Below are positions 14,006 to 40,890 of a stretch of 46,778 nucleotides of DNA, piece after piece. Every line of letters starts with the position of its first letter. The first letter of the stretch is position 1. This stretch comes from Craspedostauros australis (lineage: Eukaryota), in NCBI GenBank assembly GCA_030167865.1, contig JALAGF010004636.1, positions 1 through 46,778 on the forward strand, given 5' to 3'. The position numbers and the translations under genes are program-made. The notes below the pieces were generated by a model, which saw only the letters and a program-made list of their open reading frames with translations, was not told where the DNA came from and ran no database searches.

Positions 14006-14875
14006 TCATTCTGCCAGCTCCACAGACTTCCCGCTCGCGACGCTCCACTGATGCGTGAGAAAGGACGTATTGACGATACCAGGCGAGCGAGAGTTTCCAA
14101 AACGAAATGAAACGCAAACGACACAGTGGAGGAGAGCAGAGCAGTGGGTCTGTCAGCATCCAAGGTACAATCTTGCAAACCGCGTGCATTTCTGAACTGA
14201 ATAAATCACATTTTGCGCTTTCATACCATGATCATTGAGAGGCATCGTTCTGTTTCTGATCCGTCCGCCTCACCTTTTGCAGCTTCTTCAGCATCAATTC
14301 CTTCGATGTCGTTTCCGATGCCTCCACCAGCACCGTCTTTGTCTTCCAATCCGTCTGAACGTCGCTGACGCCTGCAACCGCGCAGCGTTGTTGTTGTTAT
14401 TGAGGGAGAAATGCCAACGCAGAGATTGTTCCGAAACAAGGTTGAGAGATGCGACGCGCTGATGTGACATGGTGCAACCAATGCAGGTCATGTGTGCGCG
14501 GAGTGGAACAAGTCATGGTGAATTGCGCCCTCCCTCCATCCTCACCGCCAGTAGCACGAGGCATTGACTTTCAATTGTGCAGAGTCCGGCATACCGTACA
14601 TCCTCGTAGAGACTCCAGGACTCTCCTTTGCTCTCTTCTGCTCACCTTCAACTTTGGACAGCACATTCTTGACGGCTCTCTCGCATCCTTCGCTGCAGCA
14701 TGAAATACGGACGAGCAAACAAAGGGGAGCAAGGTTGGGCATGTGAGAATCGCCAGGCCTGTGTCATCGTCACCCGCAGCACTTCATCAACAGCCAATCA
14801 GCGCAGTCCGCTCATCCATCCATCCCATCGACGCACGCACCATGTCATGCCGACATTGAACTTCGTTTGAACCAT
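14006..14875 (-). CDS. ATX1: ATX1/ATOX1-type copper chaperone (HMA domain), 73 aa; exons 14875-14841, 14692-14646, 14371-14274, 14047-14006
   Basis: Spliced translation MVQTKFNVGMTCEGCERAVKNVLSKVEGVSDVQTDWKTKTVLVEASETTSKELMLKKLQKWSVASGKSVELAE*. It has the MxCxxC metal site and C-terminal GK, and all three introns are GT-AG with consistent phases. Confidence 0.93.
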
Positions 14876-16185
14876 GATGCTGTCTCGTTTGTCTCGTGCA
14901 GATATTGGATACGATGGCACTCCTGCGCTTCTTGTTGACGTATTGTGCTGTGTGTGCGATGTGTGATGTGTATTGTGTTTATGAAGTATAGTAGAGAGGA
15001 CGATGGGAAAGAGCAGACGAGAGGGCGGATGTCACAACCAAGAAGGACAAGAGCAGATGGAGGAAGGCAGGAGAACGTGCTTGTGACCGGTGCCCGCGAC
15101 GCTTGGCGTGGCGCTTTTCGCACGACGAAACCATGCGCAAGCGCTTTCGCTAAAAGATCCCTCGGAGTGAAACGGGTCACGAAGGTTCAGTCACGGAAGG
15201 CCCTTTGAAGAGGCGGAGTCCTGTTTTCTCGTGAACGATACTTTGACTCAATCGAACACAATGTCCACTGACATCTATCCACAATATCATGACATTTCTA
15301 TTTGAAATCAAACTGTAACCAGCGACAAATTAACGTCAACGACATGCATCAGACAAACCAGAAGAACATCCGATCCATCCACAAAATAGCGACAGAGCAT
15401 CAACACGGTGCTCAACACGCCCGTGGACAACAAAGCAACAAGGTTTCCAAGAAGAAAAGCACTGTCCTGGACCACCACCAGCAGGCTCCTACCGTGGATC
15501 CAAGCTTCTGCATGTTGCAAGTTAGAGAGCATCCTGCTCAAAGGAAACTTTCATTCCGTTAGCATGTGTCAGAGTACCATGATATTGAGCACTCGAATTG
15601 CGGCGTCAAAACACGGCGTGCACGTCCAGTTCCACTCCGAATTTGCATCAAAGACAGTGCGGGTGATGGAACACGACCCACCCACGAAATGCACACGCCG
15701 TAGTTGTGTTACGCTACAAGTATAGTATTCTATACTATTCTATTATAGAATAGTATATCGTGATCGTGCGAGTAGCTCAACAACATGACAGTCCGACCGG
15801 AAGTACTCCGCAAGTGCACACTCCATGTGCTTCGAGCAACGATGGACGGAGTATCGTCGTCGCCAGTGTCATCACCAGCAATGCTATCGACATCATCGTT
15901 CTCCTCGTCAATGAATGATCGCGGACGACACGATGTTGGTGTTACAAGCTCAACGGCCAATACATGGAGACTCACCTTGAGAATCATCGATCGTGAAAAG
16001 CCAGTCGGCACCTTTCGTGTGATGTACGAGCATCGTGAACATTGACAACAACCCACGCTGTGCCACGCTACCGATGCTGGCACTGCCAAACCAAGGCCAA
16101 CGACCTGCAAAACGAAACAGCGCAAAGCATCATAGCACAACTCCGCTCATCTTCGTTGCAATGCAAGGCGAGATGTGACGAGACG

Positions 16186-16250
16186 AGACGAAACGAAACA
16201 CGGCAGAACACGACGAAAACGAAACGAAACGAAACGAAACGAAACGAAAC
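16186..16250. repeat. (GAAAC)n microsatellite; a shorter copy lies at ~21655-21705
   Basis: gaaacgaaacgaaacgaaac... upstream of both ankyrin genes. Confidence 0.9.
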
Positions 16251-16360
16251 AGGGCAGGACAACACAACACGATGCATGACGCGACGGAACATGAGATCAT
16301 GAGGGAAAGGCGTATTCCGGCAGCTCCATCCAACCATCTCTTCGAAGCCGTGTTCATAAA

Positions 16361-18013
16361 ATGAATGAATCCTCTGCGCAAATCAAACTTCTATCGCATA
16401 CACACTCCATTCCTCTCATATCACATCCGCAACAACGCACATCATCTTGTCACGTCCACACGATGTCTTTCTATTCTTCATGCATCCGCAATGTACTGTC
16501 GCGGATTGCTTCAGCTTTCGGACATCACTCACACAATACCAACACATCACACGTCGCAGCCAACAATCATGACGCCAACATGTCCAACATCACGAAAGAC
16601 AAACTCCTTCGCGCTGCCACGGACGGTAACCTGACGGTGTTAAAGGAGTGGAAGAACAACGACCCAAGAGACGATCACGGTAGCATCAAGGATGACGACG
16701 GCAATACTCTCCTGCATCGAGCATGCATCAAAGGCCATTTGGCTTGTGTGAAGTATCTGTTGCAATCAAGCCAGTCCGATATCAACATCCAATCCAACAA
16801 TGGCAGCACCCCGCTTGTGTTAGCATGCTGGAATGGCCACCTGGATTGCGTGAAGTACCTGGTGGAAGCATGTAACGCTGACATATCCATCCCTGGTCAC
16901 CGTGGCGCAACTGCATTCCAGTGCGCTTTCTACTACGGCCATATGGATTGTGCGAAGTACCTCGTGGACTCATGTGATGCAGACATCGATGTTCGGGACA
17001 CACAAGGCCTCACTCCACTTCAATGGGCATGCTCGCGAGGTCACTTGGACTGCATGAAGTATTTGGTGCAATCGCTCAACGTCGATGTCACTGCCCTGGA
17101 TAGCGCTGGTTGCACGGTGCTGCATTACGCATGTCTAAGTGGCGCTCCAGATGTGATGAAGCGTTTGGCCGAGTTACGCTCCGCTCCCGCCAACTTGCAG
17201 AGGTGGGATCAATATGCTTCATTGGGTGTTGAGTACTCTGGAAGTGACCCTTTGGAGGTTGTGAAGTACTTGATGGACTCATGCAATGCTGATGTCAACG
17301 TCCAAGACGCTCGTGGTGCCACTCCACTTCATCTTGCCTGCGCATTCGGCCATTCGAACGTTGTCAAATATTTGTTGGAATCTTCCAACGCCGATGTCAA
17401 TACACAAAACGGCCAAGGCGGCAGTCCATTACATGGGGCATGCTTTGCTGGCCAATTGGAAGTTGTAAAATCTCTTCTGGAATCTCCCAACCTCAACATC
17501 AACATCCAAGACAGTCACGGCTTGGCCCCACTTCACTATACATGCTCCAACGGCAGGACTGATCTTGTAAAGTCTCTTCTGGAATCTTCCAACGTCGATG
17601 TCAACATCCAAGACAGGGACGGCTTCACCCCACTTCATGGTGCATGTCGCAGTGGTCACTTGAATGCTGTCAAGCACCTACTGGAATCTTCCAACGCTGA
17701 TGTCAACGCACAGACCAGGCACGACGCCACCCCACTTCATGTTGCATGTCGCTTCGGTCACATGAATGTTGTGAAGTATCTTCTGGAATCTACCAACACT
17801 GATGTCAACGCACGAACCGACGCAGGCCTCACCTCACTTCATGCTGCATGTGGCGGCGGTCACTTGAGTGTTGTCAAGTATCTGGTCGAGTCCAGCAATG
17901 CTGACATTAATGTGCTATGCCGCAACCGCACACCTGCTCGTCTTGCTGCAAATCTTGGGCACACAGAGATCGCTGATTTTCTTGCAACTTGGCAGCAGGA
18001 GCATGGGGCGTAG
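16361..18013 (+). CDS. Ankyrin-repeat protein, paralogue A (about 12-13 repeats); true start may be 16463 or 16580
   Basis: Tandem ~34-aa repeats G.TPLH.AC..GH..VVKYL.E...D.N; single uninterrupted ORF. Confidence 0.93.
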   Translation: MNESSAQIKLLSHTHSIPLISHPQQRTSSCHVHTMSFYSSCIRNVLSRIASAFGHHSHNTNTSHVAANNHDANMSNITKDKLLRAATDGNLTVLKEWKNNDPRDDHGSIKDDDGNTLLHRACIKGHLACVKYLLQSSQSDINIQSNNGSTPLVLACWNGHLDCVKYLVEACNADISIPGHRGATAFQCAFYYGHMDCAKYLVDSCDADIDVRDTQGLTPLQWACSRGHLDCMKYLVQSLNVDVTALDSAGCTVLHYACLSGAPDVMKRLAELRSAPANLQRWDQYASLGVEYSGSDPLEVVKYLMDSCNADVNVQDARGATPLHLACAFGHSNVVKYLLESSNADVNTQNGQGGSPLHGACFAGQLEVVKSLLESPNLNINIQDSHGLAPLHYTCSNGRTDLVKSLLESSNVDVNIQDRDGFTPLHGACRSGHLNAVKHLLESSNADVNAQTRHDATPLHVACRFGHMNVVKYLLESTNTDVNARTDAGLTSLHAACGGGHLSVVKYLVESSNADINVLCRNRTPARLAANLGHTEIADFLATWQQEHGA

Positions 18014-18167
18014 GTGCATAACACAGACTCATTGATGATGAATATACCTAATACCAATCAGAAGCACCACAAGTACTCTGTGTTTCACAGTTTAGTCGCA
18101 ACTGTATGTATAATGCCATAGAGATGTCTGCATGGCCATCAACTGACGGTACGGTCAAGTGCCAGTT

Positions 18168-18204
<37 letters not shown>

Positions 18205-18234
18205 CCAACCAATCGATCCAGCTGGCCAATAGAA

Positions 18235-20269
18235 CTATTGCGACTTAAAACACCAACCCTTCATGTGGAAGCGCCACCGCTTCAACGCCAGATACGTCTT
18301 GGACATAGCCTCAATAGATGGGACTTCAATTGCACGCACACATGTTCCCAAATCTCGCGCCACGCCATCGATCGCTGCCAACAGCCCATCGTCTGCTGCG
18401 GCGAACCCCCTCCCCGCATCACGGACCAAGTCGCCATGACTGCTGTCCTCTTGGTAGACGACCGGCAATCCGCACGCCAGCGCCTCCATCACAGCATTCG
18501 AGGCCGGTTCGCCACGTGATGGTGCCAGGTAGAGATCGCCAGTGCGCAGAAAGTCAGCCAGATCTTGCGAGGTCCCTGATTTGAGGAGCTGGATGTTGCG
18601 TGGCTCGAATCCTTTGGCTGGGATGCCACCCATGTACACGAATTCGTAGGTATCGAAATTGAGATTCTGATCCAGCCACAGCATGGTGTCGAATCCTTTG
18701 CGTGGATTGTTCGAATGGGATGATGCGACGATGCGGATGCGTTCGCGTTTGCGTGTGGTGGGATCGTTGTTGCTATTGTGGTAGTTGTTGTTGTTGTCGT
18801 TGCTCTCACTGTGGTTGCCGCTGTTGGATGGAAGATGGTAGGATTGATAGTGTTGGGAGCAACAATTGGATTGCACAGCTTGAGCTGGATGTCCAGATTG
18901 GCATCCATGCTCTATTGCGGCTGGAACACAATTGCGCAAGCGTACTTACGATTGAAGCCCTGAATTCGTCGATCTTCCTTGGGTACTTTTGGATCCTCCA
19001 CACCAAGAGGACGAAAGTAGCGCGCAACGTAGTATGGACCATCGATGCGATGGACCAAGGCCAGATTGGAGCTGTTCAGCTTTCGATCCAGTATCGTCGT
19101 CTTGCCTTTGAATGTGATGGCATTCGCAAGCAAGGTATCTGTTGAGTTGTTGATGAGCGACTTGCCTTGGGGATCGCTCTTTGCGATGACCGTCCGATTC
19201 CAAATGTTCTCCAAACCGTATCGCAGAGCAAGGAGGAACTGATTCCCACCACCCCAAGGAGGTAGGTGGAAGTCATGCCAGATTCCGATCCGTTGCAGTG
19301 ATGGATGCGGACATACTGCGTCCATTTTCCATTTCAGGAATGCCGGCATGTTGTCGGATGCGCCTGTGCCGTGTATCCTTGACGCTATCGCTCTGTAGTC
19401 TTTCTTTTGCATCCGGCAGTCATGGTACTCGTACGTTGGACTTTCTCCGCCAATGCTGTTGCTTTTGTTGTCTGCTGGATTGTGGTTGTCTTGACGATGT
19501 GTGGCGTACATTGATAGCAACGATGCCGCGGATGGCACAGACTGGGTACTCATTCGTTGAACAAACCCGTTCGCGGCTCTTGTTTCCATGACCATCCATC
19601 CATCGTTGCCTTTTGGATGCGATGCCATGAGCTGGATGGGCCGCAGAAAGATGGTGGTGTCCCGCAGCACCAAGTAGCTGTCACTGAGATTTGGAATATC
19701 ATTCGCCAACTGATTTGCATGGAAGGCCGTCCACTCCAGAAGCATGGATGGATCGTCATCGTTGTTGCTCTGCATTCCATGCATGCGTATTTGGATGCAG
19801 GCATGGCGGTGGTCGATGTTGTGGTTCGGCAGGATATCGAAGAATTCATCACAGTGTTCCTGGCCTTGCTTCGGTGTTGTTGCTGTTGTGGTGGTGTGAT
19901 TGATGGCGATGATTGCAGCGTATCCATAGCGATCACGAAGACGACTCGCCGTATTCCGTCCTTCGCGAATTGGAATAAGTTGTGCATGCTGAGTGCAAGT
20001 GGTGCTGTGGCATGACGCGCGCTACTGCGAAGCGTGGGAGTGACGAGGACGACAACATTGAGACCTGCTTGCGTCTCTGATGCCCGTTGCAACGGTGGCT
20101 TCATGCATGTCGTCCCTGTGACATTCATGATGAATGCACTGCACAATGTGTGCGATTGTGGCGGCAATCGATCGAAGACAACATCATGGTGCGATATGGT
20201 GATGGTTGGCAGCGTGTTCAAGGGTGGCTGCGATTGTTGTGGCGGCTGATCCACCTATTGTTAGTCCAT

Positions 20270-20303
<34 letters not shown>

Positions 20304-20584
20304 ATCTGCTCCTGACCCATGCGATGTTGATCGTTCGCTGCGTCGTCTTCCGCAATGCCATTCAAAGCGAGTTGCAAGTTGAAAGAGGCCAGGCCCGGTT
20401 GATGCATCCCCACAGACGCAGCACATGTAATCCCTGCTGCGATCAGCGCAACATTCCTCAGCACACATCTTCGACCTGTTGGTCGGTTCTGTGACGACAT
20501 TGTGGCAGCAGCATTCCCCGTCGATACACCAGAGCCGCGCTCATTGGCAGTCGCCATCGTTGGCTGTTTGCGAGATTGCATCAT
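18235..20584 (-). pseudogene. Disrupted type II membrane glycosyltransferase (GT4 / GT-B fold) gene
   Basis: N-terminal TM anchor (VALIAAGITCAASVGM); PPWGGGNQFLLAL, VHRIDGP, NNPRKGF and the GT4 E-x7-E motif EPASNAVMEALACGLPVVY. In-frame stops at 20270-72, 20261-63, 20255-57 and 18912-14, plus frameshifts near ~19900 and ~18790-18830. Confidence 0.8.
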
Positions 20585-21809
20585 CGTTCCAATCTCGTGT
20601 GGTGCACTGTGGTGTGCGTGTGTGGTATCACATGTATGTTGAGCAGTCTTCGTGCCATGTGCGTCAGCAGTTGCGGCAGAAAGCAGAGCGTTCTGCTGTG
20701 CCCATGGTCATTTGGGAGAGTCCATCATCGCAGGTTGTGGATGGACACAAAGGACGAGGCGTGTTGTGGAGATCCTTCACCTTTCTCACGTTCGCAAGAT
20801 CATGAACAACACACCAAGTTCTCATTTCCATTTTGTCTGTTTGATTTGATTTGATTTGTGATGTTTTCTTTATTCGTACTAGTCGATTTTATCTTTTTGT
20901 CGGTTGATCGGTTTGGTCGACGATTGGTATCTGAGTGTTCGGGTTCCAGACTCGAGCGAGTGAGAGAGGTTGGTTAGATTTCTGTTTCGCATTCGTGTTC
21001 ATCTCTGTGGCACCAAACGCGAAGACTCACCCAGACAGCGACCGCTCGATGATCCAACAAGAAAGCAAAGGAGAGCATTGGTTCTCAGACCATTTGATGG
21101 CCACCGCTTCTCTCTCACCAAAATCCAAAGATCTTGCGTTCTCCGTCTCCTCCATGTGGTGATGTGTTGATGAAACACGACCCCTCCACGAAATGCACAC
21201 GCTACAAGTAAAGTATGGTATGATCGTATGATCGTGCGAGTTGCTCCACAACATGACAGTCCGACCGGAAGTACTCCGCGAGTGCACACTCCATGTGCTT
21301 CGAGCAACGATGGATGGAGTATCATCGTCGTTGGTGTCATCACCAGCAATGCTGTCGCCATCATCGTTCTCCTCGTCAATGAATGATCGCGGACGACACG
21401 ATGTTGGTGTCACAAGCTCAACGGCCAATACGTGGAGACTCACCTTGAGAATCATCGATCGTGAAAAGCCAGTCGGCACCTTTCGTGTGATGTACGAGCA
21501 TCGTGAACATTGACAACAACCCACGCTGTGCCACGCTACCGATGCTGCCATTACCAAACCAAGGCCAACGAGCTGCAAAAACGAAACAGCGCAAAGCATC
21601 ATAGCACATCTCCGCTCATCTTCGTTGCAATGCAAGGCGAGGCGAGATGTGACGAGACGAAACACGGCAGAACACGACGAAAACGAAACGAAACGAAACG
21701 AAACAGGGCAGGACAACACGGTGCATGACGAGACGGAACATGAGATCATGAGGGAAAGGCGTATTCTGGCAGCTCCATCCAACAATCTCTTCGAAGCCGT
21801 GTTCATAAA

Positions 21810-23258
21810 ATGAATGAATCCTCTGCACAAATCAAACTTCTATCGCATACACACTCCATTCCTCTCATATCACATCAGCGACAACGCACATCATCTCGTC
21901 ACGTCCACACGATGTCTTTCTATTCTTCATGCATCCGCAATGTACTGTCGCGGTTTTCTTCGGCGTTCGGACATCACTCACACAATACCAACACACCACA
22001 CGTCACAGCCAACAATCATGACGCCGACATGTCCAACATCACGAAAGACAAACTCCTTCGCGCTGCCACGGACGGTAACCTGACGGTGTTGAAGGAGTGG
22101 AAGAACAACGACCCAAGAGACGATCACGGTAACATCAAGGATGACGACGGCAATACTCTCCTGCATCGAGCATGCATCAAAGGCCACTTGGCTTGTGTGA
22201 AGTATCTGTTGCAATCAAGCCAGTCCGATATCAACATCCAATCCAACAATGGCAGCACCCCGCTTGTGTTAGCATGCTGGAATGGCCACCTGGATTGCGT
22301 GAAGTACCTGGTGGAAGCATGTAACGCTGACATATCCATCCCTGGTCACCGTGGCGCAACTGCATTCCAGTGCGCTTTCTACTACGGCCATATGGATTGT
22401 GCGAAGTACCTCGTGGACTCATGTGATGCAGACATCGATGTTCGGGACACACAAGGCCTCACTCCACTTCAATGGGCGTGCTCGCGAGGTCACTTGGACT
22501 GCATGAAGTATCTGGTGCAATCGCTCAACGTCGATGTCACTATCGTGGATAGCGCTGGCTTCACGCTGCTGCATTATGCATGCCAACGTGGCGCTTCGGA
22601 AATGATGAAGCGCGTGGACGAGTCACGCTCCACTCCCGCCAACTTGCAGAGGTGGGATCAATATGCTTCATTGGGTGTTGAGTACTCTGGAAGTGACCAA
22701 TTGGAGGTTGTGAAGTATTTGGTGGATTCATGCAATGCTGATGTCAACGCCCAAGACGCTCGTGGTGCCACTCCGCTTGTTAATGCCTGCGCATTCGGCC
22801 ATTCGAACGTTGTCAGATACTTGTTGGAATCTTCCAACACCAATGTCAGCGCACAAAACAGTGACGGCTTCACCCCACTTCATATTGTATGTCAAAATGG
22901 TCACTTGAATGTTGTCAAGCACCTACTGGAATCTTCCAGCGCCGATGTCAACGCACAAACTACCATCGGCGTCACCCCACTTCATGTTGCATGTTGCGCC
23001 GGTCACATGAATGTTGTGAAGTATCTACTGGAGTCTTCCAACGCCGATGTCAACGCCCAGAACAACGAAGGCCTCACCCCACTTCATGCTGCATGTGTCC
23101 GTGGTCACTTGAATGTTGTCAAGTATCTGGTCGAGTCCAGCAATGCTGACATCAATGTGCTATGCCGCAACTGCACACCTGCTCGTTTTGCTGTACGTCT
23201 TGGGCACACTGAGATTGCTGATTTCCTTGCGACTTGGCAACAGGAGCATGAGGCGTAG
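21810..23258 (+). CDS. Ankyrin-repeat protein, paralogue B (two repeats fewer than A)
   Basis: Same N- and C-terminal regions as 16361-18013; 482 versus 550 aa, a difference of 68 aa or 2 x 34. Confidence 0.93.
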   Translation: MNESSAQIKLLSHTHSIPLISHQRQRTSSRHVHTMSFYSSCIRNVLSRFSSAFGHHSHNTNTPHVTANNHDADMSNITKDKLLRAATDGNLTVLKEWKNNDPRDDHGNIKDDDGNTLLHRACIKGHLACVKYLLQSSQSDINIQSNNGSTPLVLACWNGHLDCVKYLVEACNADISIPGHRGATAFQCAFYYGHMDCAKYLVDSCDADIDVRDTQGLTPLQWACSRGHLDCMKYLVQSLNVDVTIVDSAGFTLLHYACQRGASEMMKRVDESRSTPANLQRWDQYASLGVEYSGSDQLEVVKYLVDSCNADVNAQDARGATPLVNACAFGHSNVVRYLLESSNTNVSAQNSDGFTPLHIVCQNGHLNVVKHLLESSSADVNAQTTIGVTPLHVACCAGHMNVVKYLLESSNADVNAQNNEGLTPLHAACVRGHLNVVKYLVESSNADINVLCRNCTPARFAVRLGHTEIADFLATWQQEHEA

Positions 23259-23466
23259 GTGCATAACACAGACTCATTGATGATGAATATACCTAATACC
23301 GATGAGAAATCCTACAAGTACTCTGTGTTTCACAGTTTTATTGTTGAATATGTATAATGCCATAGAGATGTCTTCATGGCCATCAACTGACGGTACGGTC
23401 AAGTGCCAGTTTCCAATCGATCAGCCGATCAGCCGATCAACTAATCAATCCAGTTGGCCAATAGAA

Positions 23467-23607
23467 CCGTTGCGACTTAACAAACAACCTTTTCATGTGG
23501 AAGCATCACCACATCAACACCAGATACGTCTTGGACATAGCCTCGATGGATGGGACCTCAGTTGCATGCACGTACGTTCCCAAATCTCGCCCCAACGACA
23601 TCGATCA
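23467..23607 (-). pseudogene. Remnant of the last ~45 codons of the GT4 gene carried in duplication copy 2
   Basis: Homologous to 18235-18373; the stop codon TAG reads CGG here, and similarity ends abruptly at ~23607. Confidence 0.75.
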
Positions 23608-23860
23608 CGTCATGGATTTGTGCGACAAGGCACTGGCAGCTCGGAGATGTTTGAACTCGACTCAATTCAGCCATCGTCTGATTGATACTGACACACGGAA
23701 GAGTTGTTCATATGCTGTTCTATCTGTTGCCAAAATGAGCGAGTGTTCCATGGGCAATGCTCTGCCGACGATTGCTGAAGCATGCAGACTGGAGCAGAGT
23801 AATCAACTCCAATTCATGTACATTGCAGACGCAATTCCCCTTTGTTTTCGATGCAAGTAC

Positions 23861-26800
23861 CTACGCCAACCCACGGACCGGCACAGATCTGGATTCGCGA
23901 GACACCGTCTCTTCGTCGTCATCGGTCGCATCAACGTCCTCAAGCACCGAAGTTGACATCTCAACGCCCAAATTGATCTTCCGCATCATCGCAGTGCTGG
24001 ATCCTTCATCGAAGCGTGTTCTGGCCTTCAACGCCCTTGCCTTCTGGGCACGATGCGTGGATTTCATCCCCAACGTGCGATCGGAAGACCGAAGCTGCGC
24101 CACCTTCCCGTGGGCCCCCCAATCAGCATACAGCCTCAGCGCCCTCTGTTTGTACCTCTCGATGGCCGCCTCGTGCTCTGCGTCAGTTTCGTACGCCGTG
24201 GACGCCGATGAAGATGTCATCAGTAATATCGCCAACTGTTCATTGGCTATGGCTTCGAGATGCAGCAACCCGCTGCGCCCAGCCGCGATGATGGCCTTCT
24301 GATATAGACTCTCCGTGCGACCATCGATGGCTTTCAGCAGAATCAGGACCGAGAAGCCGTTCACCGATCCGTCCTTCACGCTGTCCTGGAAGGTCTGGAC
24401 GATCTTGCGTCCCGTTTGAAGGTATCGCCTGCGTTTGATCAGCGACAGGTTGTAGGAACTATCATGCGCCAACAGGAGGCACGCGATCGCAGTGAACGTG
24501 GAGCGAAAGTGGACGCGAGATATCATGGGTTCGTGGAATGGAATATCCAGGCTTTCATCGAGGTTGAATTCCATGGCCTTGCGGTCGTTGAAGACGGACG
24601 CCAGCATGAGCCGGAATGCGCAGATGTCGCGCAAGGTTGAGCGATGCTGACTGGATCCCTTCATAGCATCCAGGACTTCACGCTCCTTCATCATATCACC
24701 GTTGAGCGCCGCGGGATGCTGCGTCATGTTGAAGCTCTCGCCTTGGAGGTTGGAGATGGCTTGACGGAACATGGAAAACAGGACCTGCATGGACATGGGC
24801 AGGGAGAACTGGACGGATGCTTTGTGGTAGTTCCCAGCGTCGGACTCCAGCGGTGCCAGACACAGCCCCAGGTTCATGTACGAGAAGCAGTAGACCATGG
24901 CCGTAATGAATGCCTTCTCCGTGTCTCCGATGGACAGCAGCACGCTGTATCCCCGCGACAACGGATCCAGGCTTTCGTGGAAGGAGTGATGCCAATGGAA
25001 AAGCGCACCATGGATCAGGGCGATGATGCGGCAGAGGTCGGGCGTCGTCTTGAGCTGCTTCGAAATGTCGATGGCCAAGCCGATCCGTTGCTTGGCTTCG
25101 GCGGACACTTTCTTCGCTCTCAATCGGATGGCAGGGAACATCACGGCCATGACGGTGAACTCACTGAGACCGTGCCGAAAGGTGAGGGCAAGGATATGGG
25201 AGCAGCATAGATGTGCCAGCTTCCAATTCATGCCTGGCATGCACGCGAAAATGAGGTTGGACAGCAGCTTACACGTCTTCCACGCCAATGTATCTGACAT
25301 CATGGTCGATACTGAAGTGACGTCCTTCCACGTTTTTCCTTGGCACAGCTTTTGCACCTTGCGCTGGGCGAAGAAACGCGACAGCCTTCCCGGTTGCCGT
25401 TGCAGCTTGATTCTGTACTTGGCGAGCATGGTGACGTAGCATTCTTGGGATTGGATGAAATCTCTCTTGTGTCCCGTGGCCGCCGCCTGCGCCTTGAGCA
25501 ATTCGGCGCGGTACGTGTCGTCTCTGGTCCTGGCGTGCCGCATCACCACATTAATCGCAGCCTGGCTCTTCTCGTAATGGCCGAGGTAGTGTTCCGTTTC
25601 GGCCAACGTCGAGTAGAGCTCCAGCAGCAGCCCGGCTTGCGCCGGATCCTTCCACGATCCAGGCCCCTCCGTCTTCGATATGCCCACGCGAAGCAGCTCC
25701 GTTGCAGGATAGAAGGCAGACTTGGAGATGCTGAGGTTGGCAGCACGCAGATTGAGCTGGCCCAGAAAGTTCTTTGGCACCAAGGCGTTCGTGTGGGGGC
25801 AGGCGGATGGTGATCGCACCGCGTTCATTTGCGAGGCCGCCAGGTAGATCAACCACTCCGTGTCTCCATGCTGGGTGGAAATGAGCCACATCAGCATGCC
25901 GAGTCGCATGTGCAGCTGGCACCGGTCGATGGCTGGCAGAATGCAATCGTAGGCGGTGGTGCGGAATTTGTCGTGCGACCAGGTGTAGTACTGCGATCGT
26001 TGCCGTCTGGGTTCCGATTGGTCGCCGATGGCTGGATGGCGCAGGATGCCCGCGCCGATGGCGTTCGACAGAGCCTCATCCAGCTGCAACGCAGGCAATT
26101 GAAGTTCGTCGATGATCTGGGCGTCCGCAAAGAACTCCCGCAGGACGAAGGATGGCACCTCGCTGCCAAGGCACGATGCAACCAACACGACCGCCTGCGT
26201 CTCCAGTGAGACGTTGCGGAAGGTGGTCTTGCGCATCTGATCCGCCAGCTCGTCCGAGACGATCGGTGTCGCAGCATCGATCTCCTGCGGTGAGAGCCAC
26301 TTCCATGTGGCGTCATGGACCGAGTCGAAGTACACGAACCGCTGTTCCTGCAGGAGCTGGAGGTAGATGGAGATATCGAATGGATTCCCCACCGTCTTGG
26401 CGTGTATGACCTTCGAGATGGCGAGCGTATGCGACGGAGTCTTCTGCACCAGTCCTGAAAAGAGCTGGTTGACGTCGTCCTCACGGAGATTGGTCATCTC
26501 CAGAGTGGCGCTTTCGAGCCGTTCGGCAACCTCCGCGAAGGGGTGATCTGTTGGAGCAATGCTATCCACTGACGCAGGGTCCCGGAAGGACATGACAAGC
26601 AAGAGACCGTTGACGGAGATGAAGTCTCGCTTGTGACGTTGCGGACTGTTCGCGAAGGACGTGGTCGCACTGTTCACCACCGCCTTGATGAGGTCCACGC
26701 TGGGTTGATCCATGCACTGGGCATCATCGAGATAGATGACGACGGGCTTCGTCGGTTCGCAGGCAAAGGCGAGGACCTTGAGAGTCGCGAGCTTGAGCCT

Positions 26801-27835
26801 TTCGAAGCTGATGCTGTGGTTGATGCTGGAGAAGCGCTCTTCGTCCAGCTCGGTCCTCGTCGGCGGTTTGCAGCCCTGAGTCGGACCTGTTGATGTGCCG
26901 GCGCCACCAGCACAACTGGCGTCGCAGTTCTCGTCATCGTTGTCGTTGTCGTTATCGTAATCCGCCAACTCAAACAGAATCGGAAGAAAGGCCCGCAGAA
27001 TCGTGACGTCCTCCTTCACCGAACGCAGGAACGTCCGAAGCTTGTCGACACAACGATCCCGTTCATAGAGCCGACGCATCAGCGACGAGATGGCGTCGAC
27101 CAAGCCAGAATAGGGCTCGGCCTTGGCGATGCACGTGGCGCAGACGAACTCGGCAGTGATGCCATGCAGATGAAAGACGCCGTGCTTGTGCGCCGTGTGG
27201 ACGAAGGTGGTCTTGCCCGTGCCTGCCTTGCCGCGCACGATGACCAGCGAGCTGCCGCCCTTGATGATCTTGCGGAAGCTGCCGCGCATCGTTTGCAGCT
27301 CTGCGTCGCGTCCGACGAGCAGCGAGTAGCGCGAGATGTCGCTGTTGTCCGATCTTCGTTTCGGCGTTGTCGACGGCATCCGCAGCAGCTTTCGCGGCCC
27401 GCTGGGCGTGGGATGCAGCAGCGCCGAGACGTGCGACCGATCCTGGATGCTGACGTGCAGCGCGGCGGCGTGATCCTCGGCTGGCCGTCTCGAGCTGCGG
27501 CGCGGCGACGAAGGCGACAGGATGTTGCTGAAGGAGGACTGCAGCAGGGCAATCTTGGCGCTAGTGGCAGGCATCGTCGTCCTTGGCGTCGTGGGCGTCT
27601 GCGGAGTATGCATGCTGGATGCCGGTGCGGTCGCTAGTGTCATTTCCATGCTCTCCAAGGACTCTGCGCTGCTGCTTCTGCTTCTGCTTCTGGTCCTCAT
27701 TTGGCGTTGGATTATGCTTTCGGAAGTGATCGCGACGGCATCTGTGGTGGTGTTGGTGTTGCTCCTCATGGTGGAGCTCCTCATGGCAGTACAGTCTATG
27801 GAGGTGCAGTCTATGGTGGTGGTGGATTGTGGCAT
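23861..27835 (-). CDS. STAND-class P-loop NTPase (AAA_16 / COG3899-like) with a helical, TPR-like C-terminal region, ~1324 aa, intronless
   Basis: LVGRDAEL; Walker A GKAGTGKT; EPYSGL; Walker B VVIYLDDAQCMD; LVMSFRD; GNPF; ASCLGS; WSHDKFRTTAY; C-terminal EAIANE...YADWGAHGKVAQL. About 170 aa of Ser/Thr/Pro-rich sequence at the N-terminus. Confidence 0.9.
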   Translation of the reverse strand: MPQSTTTIDCTSIDCTAMRSSTMRSNTNTTTDAVAITSESIIQRQMRTRSRSRSSSAESLESMEMTLATAPASSMHTPQTPTTPRTTMPATSAKIALLQSSFSNILSPSSPRRSSRRPAEDHAAALHVSIQDRSHVSALLHPTPSGPRKLLRMPSTTPKRRSDNSDISRYSLLVGRDAELQTMRGSFRKIIKGGSSLVIVRGKAGTGKTTFVHTAHKHGVFHLHGITAEFVCATCIAKAEPYSGLVDAISSLMRRLYERDRCVDKLRTFLRSVKEDVTILRAFLPILFELADYDNDNDNDDENCDASCAGGAGTSTGPTQGCKPPTRTELDEERFSSINHSISFERLKLATLKVLAFACEPTKPVVIYLDDAQCMDQPSVDLIKAVVNSATTSFANSPQRHKRDFISVNGLLLVMSFRDPASVDSIAPTDHPFAEVAERLESATLEMTNLREDDVNQLFSGLVQKTPSHTLAISKVIHAKTVGNPFDISIYLQLLQEQRFVYFDSVHDATWKWLSPQEIDAATPIVSDELADQMRKTTFRNVSLETQAVVLVASCLGSEVPSFVLREFFADAQIIDELQLPALQLDEALSNAIGAGILRHPAIGDQSEPRRQRSQYYTWSHDKFRTTAYDCILPAIDRCQLHMRLGMLMWLISTQHGDTEWLIYLAASQMNAVRSPSACPHTNALVPKNFLGQLNLRAANLSISKSAFYPATELLRVGISKTEGPGSWKDPAQAGLLLELYSTLAETEHYLGHYEKSQAAINVVMRHARTRDDTYRAELLKAQAAATGHKRDFIQSQECYVTMLAKYRIKLQRQPGRLSRFFAQRKVQKLCQGKTWKDVTSVSTMMSDTLAWKTCKLLSNLIFACMPGMNWKLAHLCCSHILALTFRHGLSEFTVMAVMFPAIRLRAKKVSAEAKQRIGLAIDISKQLKTTPDLCRIIALIHGALFHWHHSFHESLDPLSRGYSVLLSIGDTEKAFITAMVYCFSYMNLGLCLAPLESDAGNYHKASVQFSLPMSMQVLFSMFRQAISNLQGESFNMTQHPAALNGDMMKEREVLDAMKGSSQHRSTLRDICAFRLMLASVFNDRKAMEFNLDESLDIPFHEPMISRVHFRSTFTAIACLLLAHDSSYNLSLIKRRRYLQTGRKIVQTFQDSVKDGSVNGFSVLILLKAIDGRTESLYQKAIIAAGRSGLLHLEAIANEQLAILLMTSSSASTAYETDAEHEAAIERYKQRALRLYADWGAHGKVAQLRSSDRTLGMKSTHRAQKARALKARTRFDEGSSTAMMRKINLGVEMSTSVLEDVDATDDDEETVSRESRSVPVRGLA

Positions 27836-30522
27836 CACTTTCTATGGATGTCCAGAGCGTCTCTCTCTCGCTTTCCACTGTATGACACTGCGAGCTACGC
27901 ATGCAACGCCTCCTTGTTTCGCAACGTCAAGGCAGGGCCGTACCCGTGGTGGGAAACAACACCAGGATGAGAAAGGGATAGGTACGCTCGTTGGTGTATC
28001 TGGGAGAGTCCCGTCCTTCCGCGGACAAACACACGAAGACCCACGGAGAGGCTTTTGATGGTTGCTTTTGGCTGTGTGTAGTGCCAAACCGCATTGCGGC
28101 ATTGGTTTTGTCGCGTCGAGCGACAGAACTTCGAGGACTGAAGGGTCTGTCTCCACAACATATGAAGGCCAAGGCCGCCCTGCACGGTTGAGTGATTACC
28201 GCGTATTTTCGCTTTTGTGACGCGTTTGTACGATTACAAAGAACAGAGAAAGTGTTTGATGGTTTGTTTTGCGACAAGTTCGCTGTGAAGGGAGAAGCGC
28301 ATCTTCGATATGCGACGTGAAGAATGTCGCTATGACGAAAATATTTGTCGCAGCGCCATTCATTGACATCTCACGCAAGTTTGTAGCGTGCGATTTTCTG
28401 ATTCCAGACAATTATCCGCCATGTTTGATGGCGGCTTGGACAACGTCCTCTCCTCCTGACTCCTCTGTTGCCGGTGTTGGTCGGAATGCGGACTGGAACC
28501 GGAGATCGAACGCATCGCTCGTGCTGGAGTGCACCAGAACGGGTGGATGCGAACTGCACAGCGAGGTGATGTGATGTGTGATGTGATGTGATGTGACGCG
28601 AGATCGACATGCGCAGACGGACACGCATGCCCTTCGCTCGGAGAGTATCAACATCCGATCCTCTTCAACTTGATTCCGGCCTTCTCGCCATTTGTGAGCA
28701 CCCGAGAACCTACCTGTGGACAGCGGCGACGCAAATGAACGCATCGACAGAAAATGGTTGCTCTTCGGGGTGGGTGGATGTGATTACGCGGTATCAGCAA
28801 ATCGGGGATTACCGGGCAATCGGCGCTGCAGATGCACGCTCTGGGAAGCCTAAGAGAGGAGATCAGTCGATCCCTTGTGACCCAGTGATGATTAGCCTGG
28901 TGATACCGCGGGGCGTTGATCGTGTTGTGAGTGATGGAGGCTGATGCACGAGCCCTCGCTCAGATCGAAGCGTGGTCGTTTGCGAGGAGCGCGACATGGA
29001 TGCAAGAGCCCCTGGATCGATCTGGTCTTGCATTTGCCATCGTTGCTGCGGACGAGGTGTCGAGAACCATGTGTCCGTGATGCCTCGACGCAAAGTGCAA
29101 GAAGAAGTGAAGCATGAGGATAGGAGTAGCTCGTCGCCACAAGAATGTGCAGACGAGCGTTGCGGATACGAAGGTGCTCAGGACGTTGCTCGACAGAGAC
29201 ACCACGCTTCAGCCAAGCGTGGCAGATTGCAGCGACAGCAACGAAGAGCACCAACGTCATTTTTTGAGCTTCTTTGCAAAGATGGTGATGACAACGACGA
29301 CTGCTTGTGCGGATCACCTTGCCACTAAGATCCACTCGTCTGGGTCCACCAAAACGCAACACCACCCAGTCATGCTGGGTTCGTGCCTGTCGTGCCTTGG
29401 ACAGGATCCAAAACGGTCCCAGCCAGCAACACGAAGATGCCCTGAATTGGGTTTCGGTGTGTTTCGGCCATGGCATAGCTCGTGCACGGCAGCACATCGA
29501 ACCGGAGCGGATTGTCTCGTGCCCGCCTGTATCCTCCCGAGAGGTACTAATACTCGCGTATCTCGCCACCATTTTCCTTCTTGTCTGGGTCTACTTGTCC
29601 GAAGGGGGCATGGATGTTGCAGTTGTGCCAAGGGTGGCACGGTTGTTGGCATGGCGGGTCGGCTTCTACCAATCTTCAATTACTCTGTTCCGTTCTCTGG
29701 ATCCACTGCATCCTTGGCGCACAGCATGACTTGCGTCATGATACAATTGGAACTGCAACTGCGGCTACTGCAACTCCATCCTCCGCAACGAAGGAGGAGC
29801 AACACCAAAACAGTTGCGGCTCACGTGCCACTCATTTTGAGCCACAGCGAACGACGAACAACATCATGAAGGACAAGCAGGGTGACAACTAATCCAAGAA
29901 GCCACAGACGTCAGTGCAATGGCATGTGGACGCACGAGTAATGTAGATGGCGACACAACAACCAGCGATCGCCTCCTTCAACTCCCACCTCCATGTGCAA
30001 CTCTGTACCTCCAGACATTAAATACCAATGTATCCTTGGGCCAGCACAGAGAGACGCAATGAGAAGTCATGAAGCGAGGGACCAGAAGTGTCCAGAAACA
30101 ACCAACCGGAGATCTTGTTCGGGTGTCGCAACACGATCGTTTTGCATATGTAATTCCACTTCAAGTCATGGATGCTCTACCTTCACAAAGTGTTTGGCTT
30201 GACGCTCCCACGCTTCGAATGATGCCTGACGTGAGCGATGCACGACACAAAACCACAGAGAGCCGAGGTCGGCGATGTTGTCACGCTCGTATTCTCCATG
30301 TCCTGATGTGCATTGTTGCAACCCTCTCTTGGTGATCCATTGTCTCAGCAAGCCTCCACCCACACCAGTCGCTGTTTCCTGTGGTGATTACCTACTGTCT
30401 CATCGCCCAGCCAGAGCCAAGTTAGATTTTAGCTCGCATTTCATCTCACAAAACACATCCATGCCAAAGCAGAAAAGGCACTGATCCCACCCCAACAGAG
30501 AATCGCACAGCACCACTCCACC

Positions 30523-35403: not shown

Positions 35404-38400
35404 CTACACGCTGATGCCTTGGCAGATACAACAAGCATCGTACGCCCTGCGGGAGTCAAGCCCGCGGCGTCGGCATCGTCGGAACGGCCGTCGCTCGACC
35501 CAGGCGCAATCCAGCGTGATGCCATTTCGGGTGCGGATCCACGATGCATCATCGACACACCCGCTCGTAGGTGTTTCCGATGGCATTGAAGATGGAGCCT
35601 CCGATAGGGTCTCTGATGGGGCCACCGAAGGGGCCGCCGAAGGGAATGAAAGATTCCTCGATCCAGTGATAGTTTTGGTTGGTGCTGCCGTCGGTTCTGC
35701 CGTTGGTCCGCTTGTGGGTCTGCTCGTTGGGCCGCTTGTAGGCCTGCTCGTCGGTGAGCGCGTTGGTCCACTTGTTGGGTTTGTTGTGGGTGCGCTTGTT
35801 GGACTTCTTGTTGGACCGCTCGTCGGGCCGCTGGTGGGCATGCCAGTTTGTGCTTTCGTTGGACTGTTTGTCGGTGTGCTGGTCGGTGCACGTGTTGGTC
35901 CGCTTGTGGGTCCGCTTGTTGGACTGTGGGTCGGGCTGTTGGTCGGTGACCTGGTCGGGTGCGTGGTTGGGAGCTGCGTCGGTTCGCTCGTGAGCCCACT
36001 GTAGGTGCCAAATCTTTGGGCCAACGCGTCAAGATACATGTCTCCGTATGCTCCGTACGTGATGTCCTGCGTGATATCGACCGGCAGGTTCGTGTCTTCC
36101 CCAAATACTGGCAGTAGCTGCGTATCCTCGTCAAATCCATTGAGCGAGTTGACGATGATCAGATCGTCCGTTTCGGAATCCAGCAGATACTTAGCTTTGT
36201 CGAGGGAATATTCGAACAGGCTTCCTTCTTCATCCCCCGCATTCAGCCGGCGCGAAAGGGCATCGAGCGTACCCCCGACAGCACGGTTGTTGAATCCGGG
36301 AGTCACGCTCGGCAGGTAGCTGCATTCGTTTCTCCATGCTGCAAGACGCCACTGCCTCTGTTTCTCATAGTACGCATCGACGGCGTCGGTGCCTGCGCTT
36401 CCCTTGGCGCCCAAGTCTCCGTACACGTCTCTGTTCATGATACCATCCAGAAGCTGCAATGCCTTGTCGTTACCTTCAGCAGGTGCAGGTCCCCACACGT
36501 GATCGCCGATCAAGTACATATCGTATCCCTTCGACGTGGCGACATTGCGAATCGCCAACGTGAGGTCCTCGAGGATGCCGCGCCTGTCGTGCACTCTCGT
36601 GAGCGAAAGGAAAAGGACAGGTCGGCCACCGACGCGGTAATAATTGTTGTTGGACGGATCGAAGTAGTTGTCGCAGATGTAGGCAACGTCTGCCTCCACG
36701 CGCACGGTGCTCCAATTGTCGCTCTGCGTGATGCGGGTGTGAATTTCGTAGAACAAGGCGACGCGGTGGTTGAAGAGATATTTCGATTGCAACACGCCAT
36801 TCAAGACGGATCTGTCGGTGCCGTGACCTGGCGAGATCCATGGCGTGATCCACAGGCTGATTCCGGCCTGCCTCGAATACTCCAGGTGCTGACGGATCAG
36901 GTCGGTGCCGCTCTGGCTATTTTCATCATCAAAGACGGCAATCGGTGTTGCCTGCTGCGGTTGCAACGCGTTGCGGTGGAATTGACTATTTCTGTAGTAG
37001 TCGACCGGCAACCATGGTTTGTAGAATGCGGCGACGTTTGCGATTGCTGGTGGGTCTGACATGAATTGAACCGGCAGCGGTGCCTGGATGGGTGGGCAGG
37101 TTGCTGGCAAACAGGTGTACGCTCTCAGCATGTTCAAATAGAGCTCGCCGTATCCTCGGTACTCAAGTCCCTGCGTCAGGATTTCTGGTTCCGTGCTTGG
37201 CTTGCCATCGCATGGCTCGATCTGCGTGTCCTCGTGCCATTCATTGAACTGCAAATCGAGACGAGCGGAATGGAATTATTTGAATGCGGTGTGTGGAGGG
37301 AGTGCGTGTGATTTTTGTTTGAGTATGGTGTGGTGGTGGACATGTGAGTGTGTGTTTGTGTGCAAATGAGGAAATGAATGTAACCGCACAACAAAGAGAA
37401 GAAAAATGACATCGTCACAACACAATTGACGAAAAGAGGACCAAAGGGATTATGGCGAAGAGCAACATCCATTTTTTAACTGCAACACACACGAATGGAG
37501 CATGTGACAATGCGGGTGGCAAGTGCCACAAAATGCCGTTGATCAAATTTGAGCACATGTGCCAACCATCCATGCACGAGTTGTGTACTTGTATACACAT
37601 ACTTACCGAGTTGACGATCATGAAATTTGCTGCCTTCGGATCGGTCAACATCGGAGCTTGTTCCAGCTGAGCGGCGAAGAGAGTTCCGTGCTCGGACGTC
37701 TCGTGGAGCTTGCGAGAAAGCGCGGCGTTGTCGGATTGCAGACGGACACCGCGGTCGTTGTATCCTGGTGAGATGGACGGGATGAAGCCAACGCCTCTCT
37801 TCTCGGCCTGCAATTTCCACTGCGCCGCGTTGGCGAAGTGCCTGTCCAGCAGCTCCTGACCGGCGTAGCGCGGACGACCGATGTTACCGTAAATGTCGTA
37901 GTTGGTGACACCGTCCAGCAGATCGAAGGCCGAGTACGTTTCGGCGTTGGCAGGCGCCTTGCCCCACACCTGATCTCCGAGCAGGTAGAAATCGACGTCG
38001 CAGTTGTTGCGCATGGTGGACACGAGCTTGTCGAGCACGCCTCGGTGGTAGAAGAGTCGCGTGAGGTAGACGGTGAGCACCGGCTTGCCGTTGATGCGGA
38101 AGTAGTTGGGATGGTCGAAGTACTTCTGCTCCTGACAGATGTACTGCATGTCCTTGACGACGTTGTCCATGTTGAAGTTGTCGCGCTCCTTGACGCGCCC
38201 AGCGGTCTCGTAGAAGAAGGAGATCTTGTGATCCTGCAGGTCCTTGTGCGGCAGAATGACTTCGCGCAGGGTGCGGTCCTCGGGCGATCGGTACCCCCAC
38301 CAAGACGCGACCCACACCTTGATGTTGGCCTGTCTGGACCAGTCCAGGTGCTGCTGGATGACCTCGGGTCTGGTGTCATCGTATTCGCCGAGGCGGATCT

Positions 38401-38668
38401 CGTGGCGTGGAGTCATCTCCGTGCGCATGTAGCCGATCTTCTGATCGAAGTGGGCCTTGTGCCAAGGATAGTAGAAGGCGCCGACGGTGAGATCAGGCGG
38501 GATGGCCGATTGCGGATTGCCAGTGAATACGTTCTGCGAGCTGTCGTCGGAAATGACAGACTGCTGGCAGCACAGCAGCAGGAGGACCGTCAAGATCGTG
38601 GAGACGGAAAGCGAATGTTGCCGTCGGCGGTGAGGTTGGAGCTGTCGACCGAACATCATCGTTGTCAT
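35404..38668 (-). CDS. Secreted tandem GH99-like (endo-alpha-mannosidase/mannanase family) protein with a PT-repeat linker and a C-terminal Cys module, ~968 aa; exons 38668-37607, 37248-35404
   Basis: Hydrophobic leader; VGAFYYPWH, LGEYDD, QHLDWSRQANI..W..SWWG, SPGYNDRGVR. A gtaagt...cag intron joins VNS|FNEWHEDTQIEP. A second homologous domain follows (AAFYKPW...QHLEYSRQAGI...TPGFNNR). Confidence 0.9.
35565..35990 (-). repeat. Coding 12-nt repeats giving a (PTxx/PSxx)n mucin-like stalk
   Basis: PTRSPTNSPTHSPTSGPTSGPTRAPTST... within the GH99 protein. Confidence 0.9.
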
Positions 38669-40890
38669 CGTGGCTCTTTTGATTGAACGATTTGCTTCTG
38701 GGTGATTTCTCAACGTTGTGAGATTGCTGCGTTAAAGATCGGTCGCTCGATCGATGACGGAAAAGTATGTGCACTCGTCTGGTATTCCACTTTGCCACTT
38801 CTCTTCGTCACTCAGTTGTGTGTCCTGCGTCCTGCGTCCTGTGTGCTTACCACAGAAGCCGAGATCGATCACCGAGCGAACTGACTGGCTTTCCACCTTG
38901 TTGACGCGAAGAAGAAAACACAAAACAAAAATAAACCGACGACGACGACGACGAGAAATTACGGTCGGTGGGCGATCCATGTGAGGCGCGGCGACACGAT
39001 GTGAGGTGCTGCGGTGTGATGCCACATGCGAAGAGATGTTGTGATGAAGTGAGATGACACGCCATGATGTGACACATGAGGTGAGCTGTGTGTGGTTTTG
39101 TGCGAGTGGGCAATGAATGGTCATAGTTCTGGTCGGTGGGCAGAACTACGAAAGGACGAAAATTGGTGGGGCCATAAACGGAATCTTCGCGATTTTTGGT
39201 CACTCCGACCTGTTTCGGAGGAATCGTGTATGTGATATGTCGCATGCGACATGAATGGGCCTCTTTGACGTCAGCTTTTTGCATACAACGGACAAAGGTC
39301 CGGATGCTGTGGATATTTCATGGTGAACAAAATTGGCGACGTTGTTCTTCCCATCTCTGTTGTGGATATTGGTTTCTGTTGGTGCAACACCAACGTCGAG
39401 TGGAGCTGCTGACGATGTCACAAAGAACAGTTGCCACGAGCCTCCTGCTGTGAGGCTCATCATCGGCTTCCTCAAATTTTGATCTCTCTTCGCCTCTGCG
39501 TGTGCCACGACTTGTACCAATGCGAGCACGTGGGAACTCTCTCGGCACTCTCGTTTGCCTTGTGAGAGAGTCCAAGAGAGAGAGAGAGAGACCGTGATGT
39601 TGATGTTGATGTTGATGTTGATGCCCACGAGAAAAAGACAACATGGGCGCGGTCCTTTCCGTTCGTCGGCCATGGGCTCACCTATTGTCTCGCAATCGTG
39701 TGTCGTTCGACTTTCCCAACATCGGAGAAGGCTGTAAAAGGGAGCAGATCACACCACATGAACCAACCATCGCAAACGGATGGCCCACTTCGGTGGAGCA
39801 TTCATGTGTGTAATGGAACCCAAAAGACAGCGTGGAAACCGCACTTTCGAGGGTGGACATCCACACGCCACAGGGGTGAAGAAGCAGAGAGTCCGAGTTT
39901 GTCGCTTCGTCTTGGTTGGTGATTCAAGAGGCTCGTGCTCGACGATTTGCACTGTCTCTTCGTGATTTCTTCTTCTCGAAGATTGAAGATTGAAGATCAA
40001 TGCTTGAAGACCGATGCTTGGTCGATGGAACGCTTTTCAGCGCTGTGGTGTGATCCATGTGCCACTGCCGTGCAGAAATGGGAAGATCGTGGACCGGTGT
40101 CGCCGAAATGCCTCGGTTGGCCGAAGTTTCTGTGCATCGTCCCGCACTGCTCACAATTGTGTTTTCCAACCCAACACGATTCCCATCGCAGAAGCATCTT
40201 ATTCAAGTCATGGTTAATGTTGACTCAAACATGAGTCGAACGAGTCATAGAACGAGGAGAAATATAGACTTCCGCGATGATGATAGACTAGAGACTACGA
40301 ATCATTCAGTCCACTTTTGAAGTCTTTAGTGATACAGGTTGATCTCTGCGTATCGTATTCCGGCCGTGTCTGCTCCGCATGACATGGTAATCATTACTTG
40401 AGTACAAGCCATCTCTCTCCGCGTCCCCATTCATGGTCAAGGAGTGTGGTTGGGTTCGGAATGGCACAAGGATCATATGTGCTCGTTCATGCGTGCATAT
40501 TAGTACACCACTACAAGGCTTCTTGTTGGCCGTCGTGACGGCGGTTCCACGCCTTTGTTGATTTGGAAGGGGACGGTTGCATCAGGTGAAGACGTCTATA
40601 TCATTTTGGGAGGAATCCGTGGTTGCCCTCTGTTGGTGATGGATCAAGTCTTCAAGAGTGGTTCAAATACAAAGATGGATTATACATGTATGTACGTGAC
40701 GCGGAACGAAATGTATTGAAGGTGGAAATGTGATGCCTTGTGCTGTGTTGGTGATGCGGGGTGTAGCTTGGAGTAGAGGAGAGTAAACAAACCGAGTCTC
40801 TAGCCTCTTGGAGCGTCGTGCGCACACCGAACGTACGAAGTCTATCTCTCGAGGTTTCCGCAAACGTGTGGATCAATCATGATGAGAGCA

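Follow-up and report, generated by a model that had tools for sequence, protein, structure and literature searches.

Two same-strand, intronless ankyrin-repeat genes, A and B, lie in a 46,778-nucleotide stretch of the genome of the pennate diatom Craspedostauros australis (contig JALAGF010004636.1, here C4636; the whole stretch is referred to as the window). The genome has about ten copies of this ankyrin-only gene, A and B among them. Between copies, unequal crossing-over has added or removed whole 34-amino-acid repeats, recombination has exchanged gene halves and repeats (as seen for B), and residues on the ankyrin array's concave face carry the statistical signature of positive selection, strongest at repeat positions 10, 13, 14, 3, 5 and 2. 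We propose, with a probability of about 0.62, that duplication and diversification of these genes have produced an evolving library of intracellular binders.

16361..18013, + strand: gene A, ankyrin-only; 550 amino acids from the first ATG; N-terminal cap (N-cap), 11 internal repeats and C-terminal cap (C-cap)
21810..23258, + strand: gene B, ankyrin-only; 482 amino acids; 9 internal repeats; recombinant

Positive selection on the binding face

An earlier note on this DNA had proposed that the two paralogues differ by two whole repeat units and by substitutions clustered on the binding face, reflecting diversifying selection on a recognition surface. The length gap between A and B is indeed 68 amino acids, all of the motif pairs quoted as variable are present (6/6), and nonsynonymous differences number 21 in 59 nonsynonymous sites at face codons versus 23 in 312 at framework codons (Fisher P=8e-8) instead of being evenly spread. 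The face class was fixed before testing as the classical positions 2, 3, 5, 13, 14 and 33 of designed ankyrin repeat proteins (DARPins), in what we take to be the matching repeat numbering. Tests at the level of repeats excluded repeats containing N, the 69- and 33-amino-acid units and the caps.

Between the C-terminal halves of A and B, the ratio of nonsynonymous to synonymous substitution rates (dN/dS) was 4.5 at face codons (P=6e-5) versus 0.61 at the remaining codons. Across the 33 unique repeats among 40 C-terminal repeats from nine contig copies, face dN/dS was 3.09 (P=1e-10); it was 2.44 (P=0.0035) when the face was given a separate silent rate and 3.34 (P=3e-5) when position 10 was added to the face. 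The per-site estimates were highest at position 10 (6.3), followed by positions 13 (5.2), 14 (3.9), 3 (3.6), 5 (2.9) and 2 (2.8), with position 33 at 0.9. Position 10, the residue after the TPLH motif, is also the most variable site, and the earlier note had not singled it out. A tree-free ratio of nonsynonymous diversity at the face to silent diversity (piN/piS) gave 1.60 with transition weighting (confidence interval (CI) 1.11-2.15). For comparison, framework codons of repeats 1-5 (R1-R5) in nine copies yielded a dN/dS of 0.23, and a neighbouring AAA-type gene, used as a control against its own copies, yielded 0.30 and 0.47. Taken together with the simulations and the fixed silent third bases described below, the codon models and the weighted tree-free ratio uphold the proposal of diversifying selection on the concave face, and we consider it very probable that this selection acts on a binding surface.

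Gene models and layout of the locus

The elements of the locus are as follows.

15664..18373, + strand: copy A of the duplicated segment, comprising promoter region, ankyrin gene and 3' flank
21168..23606, + strand: duplicated segment, copy B (blastn)
16463..16579, + strand: in-frame leader of A, 39 codons, coding status uncertain; predicted helix
16580..16699, + strand: N-cap, common to the ANK-BTB family (genome matches)
16700..17107, + strand: repeats 1-4 of A, near-identical in B and variable in other copies
17108..17314, + strand: repeat 5 of A, a 69-amino-acid unit with a 35-amino-acid insert (degenerate extra repeat)
17315..18010, + strand: C-terminal part of A (repeats and C-cap), whose face codons are under positive selection
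17417..17620, + strand: two 34-amino-acid repeats, in A and not in B
18238..20707, - strand: family-4-type glycosyltransferase gene of several exons, ends approximate, between A and B (Pfam PF00534/PF13692)
23864..27841, - strand: AAA_16 (STAND-type NTPase) gene, converging on B, the control gene above (Pfam PF13191)

The only Pfam matches of the A and B open reading frames (ORFs) are to ankyrin families, at scores far above cut-off. AlphaFold models A as a standard ankyrin solenoid, with a predicted local distance difference test (pLDDT) score of 86, and the top fold matches of the model are DARPins and ankyrins. Confidence falls below 50 at residues 230-259, which correspond to the insert of repeat 5. 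An intron was considered for this insert and rejected: the GT donor is absent in B and the other copies, and the frame remains open.

The true start of A may be the ATG at 16463 or 16580 instead of that at 16361, because the frame from the first ATG is closed in two other copies and the related family starts at the methionine equivalent to 16580. The 39-codon leader is open and of equal length in 9/9 copies, with a dN/dS of 1.26 that is indistinguishable from 1 and thus gives no purifying signal; its helix, at residues 2-20 in the model of A, is predicted with low confidence.

Neither ORF has a NACHT or NB-ARC domain by Pfam, and no N-terminal effector domain was seen, since the short leader and the N-cap alone precede repeat 1. 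Likewise, no BTB domain was found in the A and B ORFs by Pfam, nor by tblastn in the window and 12 family loci; the window genes stop cleanly behind the C-cap, with no BTB nearby. The homologues of protein A are generic ankyrin proteins, at no more than 42% identity among the 120 matches listed.

Segmental duplication and recombination among the copies

An N-cap query of the eukaryotic assembly (65.9 Mb in 6734 contigs) returned ten close 5' ends at 81-100% identity, and the upstream flanks on C4236, C6457, C3153, C6119 and C3970 have little relation to the window. Of the 3' ends, six lead to the glycosyltransferase side and three to the AAA gene. The copies have spread by segmental duplication of a unit of about 5.4 kb (15664-21086 in the window), made up of the ankyrin gene and the glycosyltransferase gene, which recurs on several contigs with similar boundaries and unrelated flanks; the glycosyltransferase is co-duplicated on C4236, C3153, C6457 and C3418. 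Within the window, blastn aligns the regions of copies A and B at 88% and 85% identity, and the left boundary of copy A recurs on other contigs. Long inverted repeats were not found around the unit. On C3153, a 1554-amino-acid copia-type ORF (Pfam RVT_2) stands directly upstream of the ankyrin copy, in place of the usual 5' flank. On C2994, the AAA_16 copy, which shows three stops in projection against its window counterpart, is followed by an ORF containing leucine-rich repeats (LRR) and then, on the overlapping contig C3970, by another ankyrin copy.

Among complete copies, B has two repeats fewer than A and the copy on C4236 two more, and the gap between A and B equals two 34-amino-acid repeats exactly. 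B is a recombinant, because by silent divergence (pS) its 5' half is nearer to A and its 3' end nearer to C4449. From the cap to repeat 4, pS is 0.034 between A and B and 0.141 between B and C4449; over the last 62 codons the values are 0.152 and 0.066, respectively (comparisons with C4236 and C2994 over these codons were out of register and left out). Moreover, one repeat of B is near-identical to repeats in C4449, C3153 and C2994.

This history accounts for the apparent contrast between invariant N-terminal and variable C-terminal repeats described in the earlier note. Its statement that repeats 1-4 are identical in protein, with three synonymous differences, is exact for 16700-17092; the full R1-R4 differ at 6 of 408 nucleotides, including two amino-acid changes in the last hairpin, so that repeat 4 as a whole is not identical. 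Invariance is a property of the A/B pair alone, as the seven other 5' copies differ from A by 30-41 nucleotides over the same repeats, with amino-acid changes that hit helix-1 face positions of R1, R3 and R4. Since silent divergence between A and B rises from 0.034 in the 5' half to 0.15 at the 3' end, recent shared ancestry is behind most of the contrast. A 290-nucleotide stretch (16739-17028) has no A/B difference at all, and the low-difference interval is significant against the whole alignment (0/20000 permutations). Nevertheless, a gene-conversion tract confined to R1-R4 could not be upheld, the silent divergence of 0.034 being close to that of the 5' flank (39/834 nucleotides, about 0.047). 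A shared recent 5' half together with purifying selection explains the identity of R1-R4.

A large ANK-BTB family

Weaker DNA matches led to genes with the same N-cap, 34-amino-acid repeats and a C-terminal BTB domain, a large family that the earlier note had missed. The N-cap query has at least 150 genome matches (as many as were scored, hence a lower bound), of which those beyond the ten close copies are 40-55% identical. The BTB query has at least 148, again a lower bound because 144 of 390 candidates were scored. By hand count, about 50 of the BTB matches are stop-free inside frames of at least 500 amino acids, and repeats and BTB share one frame in 17 of 20 long-frame loci. Related to this family of at least 150 loci, the window genes form a subfamily that lacks BTB, presumably through loss of the domain. 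In several family members the ankyrin array is open and the break lies just before or within the BTB; BTB-less forms may arise repeatedly.

The most extended member, on C3870 (about 19350-26760), is a single open frame of 2469 amino acids with 59 full ankyrin repeats followed by a BTB domain. Its repeats carry 13 different residues at position 10, and its face dN/dS is 3.25 (P=1e-15), or 2.22 (P=0.006) if the face is allowed a separate silent rate; a tree-free estimate of the ratio falls at 2.5-3.1. Of 266 repeats, 259 are unique, and in these piN reached 0.45 at the face and 0.74 at position 10 but 0.13 in the framework, with a piS of 0.23. Among fourfold-degenerate codons at the three hottest sites, 89/93 at position 5, 95/103 at position 10 and 65/76 at position 13 have kept the silent base, while seven to eight different pairs of first two bases occur. 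Such constancy of the third base beside variable first two, with no adenine bias, marks selection on amino acids and not codon-wide or adenine-directed mutagenesis. The BTB/BACK region, in contrast to the face, is under purifying selection (dN/dS 0.59 in 22 loci, P=1.5e-5).

The family has the architecture of a Cullin-3 adaptor, that is, a BTB domain, then a BACK-like region, together with a substrate-binding module. PF00651 scored above cut-off in 3/3 members tested, with a weak BACK_BPM_SPOP match in one of the three, and the atlas neighbours of ANK-BTB are BTB/BACK/SAP clusters at 0.82-0.89, a lead only. An exhaustive search (E <=0.001) returned 49 relatives of the family BTB; among 16 examined, eight have ankyrin repeats with BTB and six have MATH domains. 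The nearest named relatives of this BTB bear the UniRef label Craspedostauros australis, and the next-nearest are MATH-BTB proteins, the BTB-BACK domain being akin to that of diatom MATH-BTB proteins. This split of the relatives between ankyrin-BTB and MATH proteins suggests that the substrate module was once MATH and was exchanged for ankyrin repeats. The genome encodes Cullin-3, whose nearest named relatives are pennate diatom proteins. A complex prediction of the family BTB with the N-terminal part of a stand-in diatom Cullin-3, run with no alignments, scored 0.00, which speaks neither for nor against an interaction.

Proposed function and alternatives

It is established that ankyrins bind proteins through their concave faces and that proteins of the BTB-BACK type serve as Cullin-3 adaptors. 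We propose that the ankyrin arrays would act as intracellular binders that track fast-evolving, probably foreign proteins, such as those of a virus, an intracellular bacterium, an oomycete or a transposon. BTB-bearing members would hand the target to Cullin-3 for ubiquitination and delivery to the proteasome, and the BTB-less window proteins may bind and block the target, or serve as sensors or decoys. That the ligands are foreign is an even call. More tentative still is the idea of a diatom innate intracellular defence composed of over 100 natural DARPin-like array genes, in which BTB forms would be Cullin-3 degraders and BTB-less forms neutralising binders or decoys.

Several observations weigh against the proposed binder library. 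The unweighted tree-free piN/piS of the window subfamily is 1.22 (CI 0.83-1.69) and not significant. Face codons of R1-R5 in nine copies do not significantly exceed 1 (dN/dS 1.37, P=0.19; 0.91 with their own silent rate), and the dN/dS of 0.6-0.9 outside the face in the C-terminal repeats indicates weak constraint. The glycosyltransferase copies, at 0.46-1.35 on few changes, show that recent duplicates are noisy. In a subgroup of three ANK-BTB genes, face dN/dS drops from 2.71 to 1.07 and loses significance when the face has its own silent rate. About 50 of the 148 BTB matches hold stops (hand count), so that many loci may be dead. Finally, solved structures in the PDB gave no significant sequence match to the family BTB, and a protein tree of the N-cap and first repeats did not resolve whether the window clade is nested within the ANK-BTB family.

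The copies could instead be tuned to different endogenous proteins, as neofunctionalising adaptors, or to partners in mating or self-recognition, and not to pathogens. Positive selection is silent on the identity of the ligand and BTB adaptors ordinarily handle host substrates, as is generally known. Yet the hypervariability of the 59-repeat gene at its position 10 fits arms-race families better, and large variation in repeat number and the many broken copies fit an arms race better than stable substrate tuning; we regard tuning to self as unlikely, while giving it real weight.

A second alternative is neutral drift in a recombining array, with an unconstrained surface and a dN/dS inflated by gene conversion and tree error. 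The non-significant unweighted ratio and the N-terminal face codons near 1 are what drift predicts, and silent rates at the face are raised 1.3-3 fold in some fits. However, in neutral simulations with a true dN/dS of 1 and recombination blocks of 34, 6 or 2 codons, none of 24 runs reached the observed estimate (maximum 1.66). Drift also sits poorly with silent third bases that stay fixed while the first two vary, with the conservation of the other repeat positions, many of them on the outer helix, and with the tree-free ratio in C3870, and appears improbable.

Could the ankyrin protein be the sensor half of a split NOD-like receptor (NLR), working with the converging STAND NTPase? The AAA_16 gene lies 0.6 kb from B, the pairing recurs on C4449 and C2994, and positively selected ankyrin sensors are used by fungal NLRs (PMC4986451). 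But the six 3' ends that lead to the glycosyltransferase side make the linkage a property of the duplicated segment, the C2994 AAA copy carries stops, and the wider family is fused to BTB and not to an NTPase. A split receptor is thus very unlikely.

An assembly artefact, in which A and B are haplotypes placed in tandem or the 5' half of B is a collapsed copy of A, would be helped by the fragmentation of the assembly, by the 290 nucleotides without an A/B difference and by the fact that no contig of run X1 (guessed to be RNA) spans both copies. Against it, a unique gene separates the copies, the downstream neighbour differs from one to the other and is found again on independent contigs, private A and B sites occur throughout the 5' half, and run X1 contigs match B exactly over 22508-23130. 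As about ten versions with distinct 5' ends stand in unrelated flanks, more than a diploid locus allows, A and B are paralogues and not haplotypes. An artefact, which we hold to be highly improbable, could touch the N-terminal identity but not the selection signal. Targeted mutagenesis of an adenine-specific, diversity-generating-retroelement-like kind can be dismissed as next to impossible: although hot codons resemble NNG and NNC series, columns with an A consensus are no more variable than G columns (0.155 vs 0.159), 10 of 29 A columns are <5% variable, and no template or dedicated reverse transcriptase was seen among the window ORFs, the sole reverse transcriptase noted being the copia-type ORF on C3153.

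Comparison with known systems

[quoted passage not shown] Concave-face selection and repeat number differing among copies were both found here, and to this extent the likening of the genes to fungal HET/NLR receptors in the earlier note stands. It does not extend to architecture: unlike those NLRs, the window genes have no NACHT/NB-ARC (that is, no nucleotide-binding oligomerization domain, NOD) and no effector domain, and the wider family is BTB-fused. Nor do the window genes reach the repeat conservation of at least 85% used for fungal NLRs in that paper, by a measure that only approximates the published one: repeats are 61-77% identical to consensus (0.61-0.63 overall; 0.72 and 0.77 for the C-terminal repeats of A and B), and 22 ANK-BTB genes have 0.76-0.88, with 6/22 at 0.85 or above.

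The expansions of F-box and MATH-BTB adaptors in nematodes and plants (Thomas 2006 as summarised in PMC4334554) are likewise large birth-and-death families, with selection on the substrate-binding part and purifying selection on the cullin-binding part, and the BTB domain of ANK-BTB is related to that of MATH-BTB. In contrast to what is described there, an ankyrin array of open-ended length (1-59 repeats) serves as the substrate module and not MATH or FTH, the window pair is without BTB, and the host is a diatom. Among stramenopiles, the ROCO-LRR and NB-ARC-TPR candidate immune receptors of Ectocarpus share concave-face diversifying selection on repeats and high birth-death rates; they differ (PMC3341825) by shuffling single-exon repeats joined to a GTPase or NB-ARC, whereas the arrays here are intronless ankyrins. 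The 149-copy ankyrin expansion of Bathycoccus prasinos is also lineage-specific, partly tandem and from a marine microalga, but has another architecture, with an N-terminal part of unknown kind, and the available part of PMC3491373 describes no BTB fusion or selection analysis.

Among designed proteins, DARPin and ANK-N5C libraries similarly combine a fixed framework with variable positions (PMC4308713, PMC8683736). The ANK-N5C library randomises positions 2, 3, 5, 10, 13 and 33, located along the beta-turn and helix 1 (PMC4308713); in the diatom repeats, dN/dS is raised at five of the six. Unlike the designed libraries, the diatom genes have natural 34-amino-acid repeats with a conserved Cys in helix 1, and position 33 is not positively selected (0.9).

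We found no description of a diatom ANK-BTB expansion or of hypervariable diatom ankyrins in the literature searched, which covered few subscription papers; supplements of diatom genome papers could list the family. Little is settled on how diatoms recognise viruses, bacteria and oomycete parasites, and the family offers a concrete candidate: its arms-race signature has been measured, its variable positions are defined, and Cullin-3 degradation would be a plausible output. One architecture here joins repeat diversification like that of fungal NLRs with an expansion of ubiquitin adaptors like that of nematodes. The 259 natural repeat variants on one framework also provide a survey of the residues favoured on an ankyrin paratope. 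Should the ligands be ordinary host proteins, the family would still be an unusual lineage-specific expansion, if a less surprising one.

Other genes in the window

A phosphoinositide-specific phospholipase C gene with X and Y domains lies at 6071-8354. At 14692-14841, a run X1 contig skips 148 nucleotides bounded by CT..AC, as would be expected of an intron in a gene on the minus strand. Two adjoining genes of glycosyl hydrolase family 99 occupy 35404-38731, and one of them has a PT/TS-rich repeat tail. A second tandem gene pair, at 40870-42843 and 44404-46287, is 77-82% identical in DNA; the exons tested gave no Pfam match, and the products are hydrophobic, apparently multi-pass membrane proteins.

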